In this document: positions 58,708 to 63,657 of the stretch, in pieces
How positions within the stretch are numbered: position 1 is the stretch's first letter
Layout: each line of letters opens with the position of its first letter
From: a bacterium
Lineage (GTDB): Bacteria > Zhuqueibacterota > Zhuqueibacteria > Oceanimicrobiales > Oceanimicrobiaceae
Reading direction: 5' to 3'
DNA: 64,000 nt
NCBI GenBank assembly: GCA_046757025.1
Contig: JBHHXN010000006.1
Span: 25,944-89,943, forward strand
Position numbers and translations under genes: made by a program
The notes under the pieces: model-generated
Told to the model about the DNA's origin: nothing
The model's database searches: none
What the model saw: the letters and a program-made list of their open reading frames with translations, nothing else

Positions 58708-60186
58708 CTACACCACCGTTTTTGAACCCACATAATCAGGTATCTCTCCCTGGTAGCGAAACACGAATCGAATGAGTTTAGACATCCACTTTTTGTGTAA
58801 GCGGACATAATGCTGATCCGCGGCGCGACGGGCGCCCAGAAGCCAGGTTGGGTAGGGATGGATGGTGTCTGCAATGTGGGACAATTTCAGGCCGTTTTTC
58901 ATGGCCAACGCAAATTCGTTGATGATCTCGCCCGCTTGGGCTCCCGCCGCATGCGCTCCTAGGATTCGGCCTCTGGCGGTGTGCAATATTATGACGCCTT
59001 CGGAAGCATGTTCCGTCACTGCCCGATCGATTTTATCGTAAGGAAATTCGATGGTTTCAAACGGGATTTTTTCAGACTGCAATTCTTCGGCGGTTTTACC
59101 CACATGGGCACATTCGGGCTCCGTGTAGGTAACCCAGGGAATGATTTCGGACTCATATTTATAAATAGGCAAGCGAAACACCGCATTGACCGCCGCGGTT
59201 TTGGCCATATTTTCAGCTACGTGCGTGAATTTCAAAAAAGTGGTGACGTCGCCAGCGGCAAAAATGTTTCGAACATTGGTGCGGCAAAAACGATCGACTG
59301 GGATGCCGTTTTTCAAAGATCGCACTCCAGCGTCTTCTAAATGGAGGTTTTCCAGATTGGGTTGTCTTCCCACCGCCATCAGCAGGGCATCGCATGAGAT
59401 GGATTTATCGGCTCCGGTCCGTGGCCCCACCGAAAGTTTAAAAGCGCCATTGCCTTTTTGGGCTTGGTGAATGGTCGCGCCCGAATAGAAGGTCACTCCT
59501 TCTTTCTCCAACCGAGTTTGAACAAAATCCGTACACACCGGCTCATCCCGAATGAGAATCCGTGGATCAAGCGCAATGACCGTCACCCGGGTACCGAGCA
59601 AGTTGAATGCCTGAGCCATTTCCACGCCAATGGGACCGCTTCCCAGAATAACCAGATGTTTTGGCTGCTGCTGCAATTCAAACAGCGATTCATTGGTTAA
59701 AAAATCGGAAGCTTGCAAGCCGGCGATTGGCAGCCGAAGGGGAGAGCCGCCCGCGGTTATGATCGCGCTTCTGAATGACAGAGATCGACTGTCCTTCTCA
59801 GTGGTCACTTTTATGGAATGCTTATCGATAAATTGCGCGCGGCCGTGTATGACTTCCACACCGCGGGCGGTGATCACTTCGGGTGAGTCGGCGTCTTCAA
59901 AGATTTGCTGGCGGGTTTTTCGAATCGAATCCATGACCGCAGGAAAATCGATGAGCAAGTCCTTGTATTTTACACCATTTTTTTGGTTCTTTGCTACCGT
60001 CGAAACGCCCTTGGCGATGTGCAGTAAGGCTTTGCTAGGAACACAGCCGTTCCAGGTGCAATCTCCTCCCAGCCGATGCTTTTCGATGAGGGCGGTGCGG
60101 GCACCAAAAGCCGCACAGATTCCAGAGGCCGTCAAGCCGGCGGCGCCACCGCCGATCACCACGATGTCATAGTCGTATTTTTTCAT
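58708..60186 (-). CDS. Class I FAD-dependent pyridine nucleotide-disulfide oxidoreductase (MerA/Lpd-like)
   Basis: IGGGAAG, redox motif GGDCTWNGCVPSK, GSGPIG, HPYPT; no C-terminal Cys-Cys pair. Confidence 0.9.
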   Translation of the reverse strand: MKKYDYDIVVIGGGAAGLTASGICAAFGARTALIEKHRLGGDCTWNGCVPSKALLHIAKGVSTVAKNQKNGVKYKDLLIDFPAVMDSIRKTRQQIFEDADSPEVITARGVEVIHGRAQFIDKHSIKVTTEKDSRSLSFRSAIITAGGSPLRLPIAGLQASDFLTNESLFELQQQPKHLVILGSGPIGVEMAQAFNLLGTRVTVIALDPRILIRDEPVCTDFVQTRLEKEGVTFYSGATIHQAQKGNGAFKLSVGPRTGADKSISCDALLMAVGRQPNLENLHLEDAGVRSLKNGIPVDRFCRTNVRNIFAAGDVTTFLKFTHVAENMAKTAAVNAVFRLPIYKYESEIIPWVTYTEPECAHVGKTAEELQSEKIPFETIEFPYDKIDRAVTEHASEGVIILHTARGRILGAHAAGAQAGEIINEFALAMKNGLKLSHIADTIHPYPTWLLGARRAADQHYVRLHKKWMSKLIRFVFRYQGEIPDYVGSKTVV

Positions 60187-60258
60187 TTGCACAAATGGTT
60201 GAATGGGTATTTGAAAAGGCCTTTCGTTTTTGTATTTTTAATATGAAGCATTAACAAT

Positions 60259-60766: not shown

Positions 60767-61561
60767 TCACTCAGAGACCTTTAACATTTGTCGAACCATC
60801 CCAAAATTGGCATTGGCGGGGTCCATAGCCAGTACTACCAATTCTACTTCGCCGCTAGCAAGGAGCTTCAAATCACCATGAAAAGTGCTTTCCTCGCCTG
60901 AGAAATCAAGTACTGTTTCCTGGATGATTTGTTCGTTTTTAACGATTTGCGCAATGACCTGAATTTTATCAGCATCCCAGAGCCCACCGGGCTCAGTAGG
61001 GCAGCCTCACGTCATGGTGATATTGGCCGTGACGGTGATTTTCTCATTATTGTGGAATTCGGCGTCAGCAGCCGGGGAAAGCAGCGAAACCCGAAATCCG
61101 TGAATTTCCAGCAGAATGCCCTCTCCCAGTATGTCCTGACCGGGCACCACCAGCAAGGTCTTAGACGCCTTGTAAGTCGATTGCGGCGGCTCCAGCGGAC
61201 CTTCAGCCACAACTGTAACAATAGTCGGTCGGGCTAACTCAAGAGTTGCAAGAAATCCCGCGGTATTTGGTGTATCGTACACGGTTTCTCCTCGTACACG
61301 CGGTTTGATCATAATTTTTTCTGTCGTGCCGGTGCCGCCCGTTTGTATCCCTTGGGCCATGACTTTGCCGGTAGCTTCGTTAAAAATGGTGATGCGAGCG
61401 CCGCCAACTTTGGTGCCGATAACTTTTGCGTCTCGCGAAATAGCCCGCACCAACACCTTTGTTGCAATTGGCTGGGAATGCACATAATCGGTGATCAAAA
61501 AAATGCTTGCACAGCCAAGCAGCGTAATGAATATCACTACTTTGTGATTTGATTGAATCAT
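60767..61561 (-). CDS. Probable exported selenoprotein (264 aa, Sec185 in MT-U-GCP motif)
   Basis: GGAGG SD before ATG 61561; hydrophobic N-terminus. In-frame TGA at 61007-61009 is followed by 79 more open codons (GCPTEPGGLWDADK...NFGMVRQMLKVSE*). SECIS-like hairpin GAGCCC-GGT-GGGCTC follows the TGA. Confidence 0.75.
60971..61006 (-). promoter_or_regulatory. Candidate bacterial SECIS element
   Basis: UGA-GGCUGCCCUACU-GAGCCC-GGU-GGGCUC-UGGGAUGCU. The G-initiated apical loop starts 19 nt after UGA, and a lower stem can form. Confidence 0.65.
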
Positions 61562-61619
61562 ATAGTCCTCCAATGAGTTTATAATTTTTTTAAGTTAAAT
61601 TCTTGAGTTATCGATTTTC

Positions 61620-61910
61620 ATTTTGAGTTTGAACTTGAGTGTCAGTCAACCTTCTGTGCTTTTCTCATGGAATTTGCAGAACACCTCTCTCATCCCGCTG
61701 AGCCGAACCCCCAAGAGGAGAAAGGATTTTTCCCCTTGGAGGGGGAAAAAAGGGGGTGTTTGTGTTTAGAGCCGCTGTTACCATCCCTTTTGGGATCTGC
61801 ATGTCATTTTATCTTCAGAACCTTTGCGGTTTTGCGAGTTAGACACCCACCTAAACCCTCCCTCAAGGGAGGATTTATTTTTCCCCCTCGAGGGGGACCA
61901 CAGGGGGTGT
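61620..61910. repeat. Degenerate dispersed repeat, copy related to 54985-55370
   Basis: GTTAGACACCCACCTAAACCCTCCCTCAAGGGAGG unit and CCCCT..GAGGGGG..AGGGGGTGT palindromes; a related motif occurs at about 9815-9845. Confidence 0.7.
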
Positions 61911-62007
61911 AAGGTACACCGGGCTTCAGCAATTGCAAATTAATGAATACTTGAGTTGCAAAAGCGCAGATATTTTTTTGCTCAAAGTAAAGACACCCGC
62001 CTATTTA

Positions 62008-62154
62008 GTGTCCATCCGTAAAGAGCCTTTTTTTGTCATTCCTGCAATTTTTAAGCGGGAATCCATTGTTCCGTTAGGCACGAGATTCCCGATGAGCTAG
62101 TCCCTGCATGTTTTAAGCAGGGAGCACTCGGGAATGACGAATTCGGATGGACAC
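62008..62154. mobile_element. MITE (family A), copy 2, 147 bp
   Basis: GTGTCCATCCG...CGGATGGACAC TIR with TATTTA direct repeats. Same interior as 33793-33911 plus an extra palindrome (CCCTGC...GCAGGG). Confidence 0.8.
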
Positions 62155-62157
62155 TAT

Positions 62158-63189: not shown

Positions 63190-63657
63190 TCATTCGAGAA
63201 ATCGATGGCGGTCAGTTGTTTCAGGCAAGCGGCAGGTTGAATATTTTCCAAACCACTTGTAGCGATTTTTTGCGATCATTTTATAAAGTGCGTTGCGAAA
63301 AGAAACCGGAATGATTCTTAACCAAGCGACGGTTCGCCAGATGCCACCGATCTCTTTGAATATTTCTAAGATGGCATCCGACTGGAAAAAAGTGCGTTCC
63401 TGCAGTGTATCCGCGTTTTGAACATAGATCACACCTTGCGCTTTTTCACTTGGTTCCGTTGGCACCAATGTGAATTTGCGCACGGTTTTTCCTTGCAAAG
63501 GCGCAAAGCGCAGCGTGGCCTGCCGGTCAATTTTGATCAAAAATTTGACTGTCCAATGACACAGGGCACAAACGCCGTCATAAAAAACCACTGAACGGAT
63601 TGCGGCCTCGCTTTCCCGACCGTTTGGTGAAAGGACGGTTGTGGTGGTTTTATTCAC
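63190..63657 (-). CDS. DCC1-like thiol-disulfide oxidoreductase (DUF393)
   Basis: FYDGVCALC, FAPLQG, SDAIL, YKMIAKNRYKWFG...C. Confidence 0.9.
   Translation of the reverse strand: MNKTTTTVLSPNGRESEAAIRSVVFYDGVCALCHWTVKFLIKIDRQATLRFAPLQGKTVRKFTLVPTEPSEKAQGVIYVQNADTLQERTFFQSDAILEIFKEIGGIWRTVAWLRIIPVSFRNALYKMIAKNRYKWFGKYSTCRLPETTDRHRFLE

Follow-up and report, generated by a model that had tools for sequence, protein, structure and literature searches.

The question raised by this locus is whether a gene that standard gene calling closes at a TGA codon continues through it and, if so, which residue this codon specifies and what the complete protein might do. The gene lies in a stretch of 64,000 nucleotides (the window) from a bacterium of the phylum Zhuqueibacterota. 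The initial annotation had noted, without giving a strand, that the open reading frame is cut at a TGA and that the frame stays open for 79 further codons. We found this to be correct on the minus strand. The table-11 frame ends ...ANITMT at codon 185, which is the single in-frame TGA, and reading on yields GCPTEPGGLWD...VSE up to a terminal TGA (Table 1). A plus-strand reading of the same interval was rejected, since no open frame is present there. The read-through product of 264 aa carries U185-G186-C187; the public protein set and gene calls hold a truncated version of 184 aa. No paralogue of the gene was found in its own genome, and a promoter and terminator scan around the gene gave a chance-level result only.

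Table 1. Features of the gene, in window coordinates.
Feature	Position	Strand	Basis
Ribosome-binding site GGAGGA	61566..61571	-	sequence, 4 nt upstream of ATG 61561
Whole gene, 264 codons + terminal TGA, one in-frame UGA	60767..61561	-	sequence; full-length Cys homologues of ~260 aa, 50-60% identity
Predicted signal peptide, residues 1 to ~29	61475..61561	-	hydrophobic helix 5-23 in model
N-terminal domain, residues 30-155, predicted transthyretin-like/CnaB-type beta-sandwich	61097..61474	-	AlphaFold model, fold search
C-terminal domain, residues 156-264, predicted Ig-like beta-sandwich with U-G-C-P..PGGLW loop	60770..61096	-	model
In-frame UGA, inferred Sec185	61007..61009	-	frame, Cys column, TGA-only scan, hairpin comparison
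Cys187, second residue of U-x-C pair	61001..61003	-	conserved Cys in homologues
Predicted bSECIS: 6-bp stem, GGU loop, 18-nt spacer, -9.1 kcal/mol	60980..60994	-	
True stop, TGA	60767..60769	-	no hairpin behind; relatives stop at same place, some with TAA/TAG

We compared the region around codon 185 with homologous proteins. With the read-through protein as query, 674 proteins were recovered at E 0.001, and among the best 120 of these all 119 other than the window's own truncated version carry C-G-C at positions 185-187. Homologues hence align across the TGA with Cys at this column, as proposed, and the motif MMCGCP..PGGLWD that the initial annotation had given is indeed found in them. A search of 50%-identity representatives returned 529 clusters. 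In the best 150 of them column 185 is occupied by Cys in 134, by a gap in 12 and by some other residue in 4; 7 records terminate immediately ahead of this column. The second Cys of the pair, at position 187, is present in 119/119 close homologues and in 133 of these 150 distant ones (13 gaps). Among 61 genomes of relatives the gene was present in seven, with TGA in five (own genome counted) and Cys in two, and in a sample of the whole phylum it was present in 9 of 167 genomes. An unpublished genome (G099, loci L071 and L249) adds one row to several of the counts given here; our conclusions are independent of it.

GTDB was scanned with a pattern of TAA, TAG, TGA or TGG before G-C-[PT]-x-x-P-x-G-x-W-[DN], which a Cys codon cannot match. 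The scan revealed 92 matches, comprising 91 TGA, no TAA, no TAG and a single TGG in an unrelated, non-homologous sequence. All 91 TGA loci are homologous on at least one side of the codon and 81 on both. In 77 of these 91 loci the frame past the TGA remains open for 77-83 codons. By record title, 49 belong to Acidobacteriota, 14 to Thermodesulfobacteriota, 11 to Nitrospirota and 6 to five other phyla (11 unassigned). The TGA form occurs in at least eight named phyla, at 29-80% identity. A GTDB pattern search that started from a single protein, with poorly conserved patterns, matched no relative, and a search of a phage collection for the family gave no match. In metagenomes, where any TGN was accepted at codon 185, we estimate about 880 matches; the 120 listed comprise 74 TGC, 11 TGT, 35 TGA and no TGG. 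Furthermore, codon 185 is unchanged in contigs (not raw reads) of three sequencing runs, two of which cover the stretch of the gene and may be its source, while the third contributes one contig over the codon.

The bSECIS model describes a stem of 4-16 bp with a loop of 3-9 nt that has a G in its first two places, a spacer of 16-37 nt and an energy of -7.5 kcal/mol or lower (PMC13188914). The hairpin behind the UGA, GAGCCC-GGU-GGGCUC, lies within all of these limits, as computed with our own script rather than bSECISearch. Its distance had to be corrected: while the initial annotation let the hairpin start 19 nt after the UGA, 12 nt separate UGA and stem, so that the stem starts at nt 13 and the GGU loop at nt 19. 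Compared to shuffled sequences the hairpin is unremarkable on its own (z of -2.5 when 46 nt are folded, and of -0.9 with 100 nt), and the weight therefore rests on comparative tests. Of the 2110 TGAs at the end of long frames in the own genome, 51 have such a hairpin, and the terminal TGA of this gene has none. Ten of the 51 are followed by more than 60 open codons; among them are this gene and the presumed HdrA- and GrdB-like genes described below.

For the comparison between genes, duplicates were removed on the first 45 nt and a perfect stem in the bSECIS window was required. A hairpin of -7.5 kcal/mol or lower was found in 102/116 TGA genes compared to 5/82 Cys genes, and with a cut-off of -5 kcal/mol in 115 of the 116 and 17 of the 82. 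When synonymous codons were redrawn at the GC3 of each gene, 8.7 of 116 hairpins were expected. As kin genes are not independent, these ratios are no formal probabilities. The peptide EPGGL is encoded by the hairpin codons GAG CC(C/A) GGN GGG CT(C/T) in 54/54 TGA genes and in 1/21 Cys genes, even though the Cys genes of this test are more GC-rich than the TGA genes. The same five residues provide an unusually clean natural experiment on SECIS design. In a profile-drawn sample of Acidobacteriota all 11 TGA genes reached -9.1 kcal/mol or lower; the 7 Cys genes caught by the motif all remained above -7.5. Four distant rows of this sample escaped the motif, and at least 7 of its 11 TGA genes overlap with the GTDB scan. 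The test is a strict one, as the Sec-type selD of the own genome scores only -3.1 in it.

The position of the loop differs by clade, at 18 nt (54 genes), 21 nt (34), 16 nt (12), 17 nt (12) or 20 nt (4), with stems such as GAGCCC/GGGCUC, CAUGCC/GGCAUG, CAAGCC/GGCUUG and UCCCGGA/UCUGGGA. Because the stem changes register between clades, covariation in one fixed register was not significant among 20 genes chosen by hand, as 113 of 500 shuffles scored at least as high. With other bacterial genes that have a SECIS in the coding region (PMC13188914) the gene shares a UGA on a Cys column, a 3-nt, G-first loop 18 nt downstream and the presence of sel genes. It differs from them in that the family forms its hairpin in several registers (16, 17, 18, 20 and 21 nt) over the same peptide.

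The selenocysteine machinery expected in the genome is complete: selA, selB, two selD and tRNA-Sec were all detected above curated cut-offs. The Sec-type selD lies beside selB (contig C73:3532-4455). The second selD (contig C344:1415-2341) has no TGA and is situated inside a 755-codon frame, probably as part of a fusion. We also noticed two further probable selenoprotein genes with hairpins in this genome. One, with the motif DCSI-U (contig C90, ~18400, +), we take to be HdrA-like, the other, with the motif U-PMC (contig C2, ~8350, +), presumably is GrdB-like. A TGA on contig C58 (~5420, +) precedes an open frame and a 15-bp hairpin of -23.7 kcal/mol; this TGA is probably a genuine stop, and its stem probably resembles a terminator and is no SECIS. 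Across a test set of 50 of the 91 GTDB scan loci plus 6 relatives, selA was present in 50 of 54 TGA-bearing genomes and in both Cys-bearing genomes. Three of the four TGA-bearing genomes in which selA was missed have selB and tRNA-Sec, and in the fourth (G077) neither selA nor these were found. As selA also occurs in 229 of 301 sampled genomes of the phylum of genome G066 (a background count that includes the unpublished genomes G133 and G252, used here only) and in 11/11 Cys-type carriers there, its co-occurrence with the TGA form is necessary and weakly discriminating. In none of 216 loci are sel genes or tRNA-Sec found near the family gene.

An ordinary reading of codon 185 would take the TGA for a genuine stop, a fault of the assembly or a codon for Trp, and the C-terminal part for a remnant or a product in its own right. 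The public gene calls, which end the protein at 184 aa, agree with this reading, yet we consider it highly improbable. The TGA is never exchanged for TAA or TAG in the 91 homologous loci and the length of the downstream frame is kept. Neither the 120 metagenome loci listed nor the homologous GTDB matches contain TGG; a tRNA-Trp(CCA) is encoded in the genome, where TGA also serves as a stop codon. The presence of the hairpin goes with that of the TGA. The initial annotation had already named a recent nonsense mutation and a misread TGC or TGG as possible explanations. The TGA is common to four family relatives in addition to the 91 GTDB loci, and the contigs of the three runs, two of them possibly the source, show no other letter. 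With TGA-only loci, no homologous TGG and agreeing contigs, a nonsense mutation, an assembly error and Trp recoding are all very unlikely. We conclude from the sequence comparisons that the internal UGA is very likely decoded as selenocysteine, Sec185. The decoding route is the conventional one via SelB and a bSECIS.

The gene had initially been described as a Cys-to-Sec variant (CxC to UxC). The exchange of Sec and Cys at this column stands; as the two forms interleave on an unrooted tree and Sec forms are under-represented in protein databases, it may have run either way, Cys-to-Sec or Sec-to-Cys. This tree (FastTree) was built from 229 rows (67 Sec, 162 Cys) that remained of 271 after reduction at 80% identity. 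The Sec forms group together on it without making up one clade (16 changes compared to 58 for shuffled labels), and at least four Sec/Cys changes are forced by well-supported branches.

The protein is very probably exported, judging from its N-terminal sequence. A hydrophobic core was found, by a simple hydropathy rule, in 110/110 homologues that have an 18-50 aa leader starting from Met. A lipoprotein reading based on LLGC at positions 14-17 was set aside because a lipobox-like motif is present in only 4 of 150 representatives. Searches with Pfam and NCBIfam profiles assigned no family to the query (best Big_7, E 0.064), and 123 members gave scattered weak Ig-like matches only; a Moricin profile that matches 15 of the 123 is probably a signal-peptide artefact. 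A PDB sequence search returned nothing at E 10 with a first alignment and two weak matches (E 0.15 and 0.68) with a second.

AlphaFold (29-row alignment; pLDDT 89.7, pTM 0.79) predicted an N-terminal helix followed by two beta-sandwiches. Modelled alone, the N-terminal domain reached a pLDDT of 95.8; its best match is 8qox_B (Z 10.8, rmsd 1.6 A over 87 residues), and transthyretin-like domains of carboxypeptidases and CnaB domains follow at Z ~8. The C-terminal domain resembles generic Ig-like folds (best Z 11.9, rmsd 2.0 A over 98 residues), and U185-G-C187 is carried by the predicted loop after strand 174-183. Foldseek gave low-TM generic matches only, and an ESM Atlas search with a natural Cys homologue recovered unnamed clusters only. 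None of these generic fold matches points to a function. The conserved residues lie mostly in loops: R39, D44-A45-K46, G49, G53-G54, T77-G78-x-T80, P122, G155, C185-G-C187-P, W195, N252 and G254, with RDAKxIG..GG and TG.T as the conserved loops of the N-terminal domain. From strand order, rather than coordinates, we infer that the conserved loops of both domains face the domain junction.

Fusions also occur in the family. Two representatives (group P0123, P0139, P0155) are joined to domains with a C-S-C motif, which we take to be beta-lactamase-like from their motifs. In one fusion of this group the family stands behind an unnamed domain and the record ends at the Sec position.

The initial annotation had suspected an undescribed selenoprotein family, and this is the case: the family is uncatalogued in Pfam, NCBIfam (June 2026), the PDB and the selenoprotein catalogue of 2026, and it is new. 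Table 1 of that catalogue comprises 119 families (PMC13188914), and none of its UGC or UxC entries matches by profile or fold. The profile scans included all entries that have a Pfam or NCBIfam identifier; the few with only a CDD, a PANTHER or no domain identifier were set apart by name and motif. The family is not described in the openly available parts of the literature, including PMC12013277, PMC1976440, bioRxiv 2022.07.06.499078 and PMC13326102 without its Table S2; the available text of the last curates known selenoprotein families only. What is added is a broad family: a single narrow pattern finds 91 GTDB loci, and clustering at 50% identity gives 529 clusters overall. Its Sec points to the probable active residue of a protein that otherwise bears only the label "hypothetical protein" and is truncated by gene callers.

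Several known proteins resemble this one in part. DUF1573 is, we presume, a small exported Ig-like domain like the C-terminal domain here. The DUF1573 selenoprotein (PF07610, OS_HP2) is one of the UGC or UxC entries in Table 1 of the catalogue, next to a TlpA, thioredoxin-like Sec.2 and SO_0444 (PMC13188914), and has the U-G-C motif in common with our protein, which differs by its two domains and its UGCP..PGGLW context. PF07610 did not match the query at E 0.1 and is not among the 25 of 36 Pfam families shown for the 123 members (the other 11 with one member each). A DUF1573-type profile is likewise absent among the 21 NCBIfam families of the members, and DUF1573 is not among the fold-search matches listed. 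The UGC TlpA, thioredoxin-like Sec.2 and the SO_0444 transporter share the U-x-C motif, but have a thioredoxin fold or are membrane transporters, in contrast to the two beta-sandwiches here; no thioredoxin-type profile matched the query or members, and the models are almost all-beta.

A closer analogy is offered by CsgC, an exported Ig fold and kin to nDsbD, with an invariant redox-active CxC at the BC loop and a potential of -139 mV, according to the openly available part of PMC3173608. The likeness consists in an exported Ig-like sandwich with a CxC-type pair in the BC-loop region, which is predicted here and named by strand order. The present protein differs from CsgC and nDsbD by an extra transthyretin-like domain, the position of the motif at the start of the loop and the use of Sec. 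Neither protein gave a sequence match or appears among the 50 fold-search matches listed, no PDB sequence match lies below E 0.15, and no curli genes were seen near the family gene.

We analyzed gene neighborhoods for functional pointers. In the window the gene is located between a zinc alcohol dehydrogenase and a thioesterase gene. Next downstream (58708-60192, -) lies the gene of an uncharacterised pyridine nucleotide-disulfide oxidoreductase that scores under every NCBIfam cut-off shown, and upstream (63190-63657, -) that of a DCC1-like thiol-disulfide oxidoreductase. These two redox genes are not conserved beside the family gene elsewhere, and a conserved operon across phyla was not found in the loci compared. 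Three sphingomonad plasmids, a close group at 86-100% identity, carry the Cys gene behind a run of rhodanese, RND, BigR-like ArsR and DUF3365 genes, as seen in two annotated regions, and beside genes for an Sqr-like oxidoreductase, TlpA and cytochrome bd. Plasmids NC_020562.1 and NZ_CP059320.1 carry the Cys form in a mobile sulfide/oxidative-stress island that also includes catalase and Dps. On another plasmid the Cys gene lies directly after dsbB, near TauE genes.

Among 50 Cys loci with flanking ORFs we detected DUF3365/Tll0287 in 4, a BigR-like ArsR in 3, a SorA-like gene in 2 (L147, L183); rhodanese, DsrE, AhpC and a SufS-like gene each turned up once. These are raw, uncontrolled counts from a minority of Cys loci. 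Such neighbors are absent from most Sec loci, whose surroundings are lineage-specific. In one clade of 21 loci (L045, L054, L101 and related) a protoporphyrinogen oxidase gene lies upstream of the Sec gene and the SECIS is shifted, with its loop at 21 nt; genes further upstream are presumably hemH- and hemE-like. The sulfur and redox context of some Cys forms is a hint at function. Since Cys forms exist in cultured sphingomonads, the function of the family is directly testable. One Cys form is the Sphingomonas plasmid protein WP_236626950.1.

The explanation that we favor, with moderate confidence as a whole, is that of a UGA-decoded, exported two-sandwich protein with a U-G-C redox-exchange loop. 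SelB with Sec-tRNA would bind the GGU-loop hairpin 18 nt downstream and insert Sec185, following established bacterial decoding. The signal peptide would export the chain, which is predicted to fold into the transthyretin-like and Ig-like domains. Sec185, as the first and more reactive residue, may attack a disulfide, a persulfide or an oxidant, and Cys187 could resolve the adduct as a selenenyl-sulfide. Sec in the first position fits an attacking nucleophile because of its chemistry (PMC13188914). The invariant residues D44-A45-K46, G49, T77-G78, W195 and N252 of both domains might form a substrate pocket, as far as strand order indicates. By analogy, thiol-disulfide or persulfide exchange outside the cytoplasm seems a reasonable, if only just probable, function for such a protein, and if this redox function is true, the short list of redox-active Ig folds would grow. 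A more far-reaching version, which we regard as tentative and rather doubtful, is a new type of periplasmic reactive-sulfur enzyme with a non-thioredoxin site between both domains. Here, Sec185 and Cys187 would take up sulfane sulfur and hand it on, or else reduce persulfides, in concert with Sqr, rhodanese and DUF3365 haem proteins, and repeated Sec/Cys switching would have re-evolved the SECIS in different registers while the peptide stayed nearly constant.

Two other readings accept the selenoprotein and assign it a different role. The U-G-C motif could belong to a periplasmic chaperone or buffer for soft metals (Cu, Hg, Ag) that does not turn over disulfides. CxC pairs with a nearby Met can bind Cu(I), and M183 is present in 105 of the best 150 representatives. 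The copper proteins CrdA (Z 8.8) and CueP (Z 7.6) do appear low in the fold lists, however within the range of a common arrangement and below many unrelated matches. Single loci adjoin a multicopper oxidase, an ArsP-type permease or a DUF692 gene, but no cop, cus or mer neighborhood recurs in the loci examined, and no His is conserved across the distant members of the best 150 representatives. We therefore judge a metal-binding role unlikely. Less likely still is a purely structural Se-S or S-S bond within a protein that acts as a surface adhesin or as a carbohydrate-binding module. Both domains resemble spacer or accessory domains of pilins, S-layers and glycoside hydrolases, and the two fusions to presumably beta-lactamase-like domains would suit such a part. 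Yet Sec is retained at one position in at least eight phyla, and the hairpin limits the choice of synonymous codons; a purely structural bond would hardly justify such a cost. Moreover, the strongly conserved loops resemble an active site more than a spacer, and catalogued Sec residues are mostly catalytic (PMC13188914).

The region upstream of the gene contains repeats. Two 43-nt copies (61717-61759 and 61868-61910), 79% alike and each with a palindrome, are REP-like, and a related 14-nt palindromic pattern has 13 matches on both strands of the own genome. Further upstream, a perfect 13-nt inverted repeat (62006-62018 and 62144-62156, 125 nt apart) encloses two 19-nt direct repeats; this unit could be a small MITE-like element.
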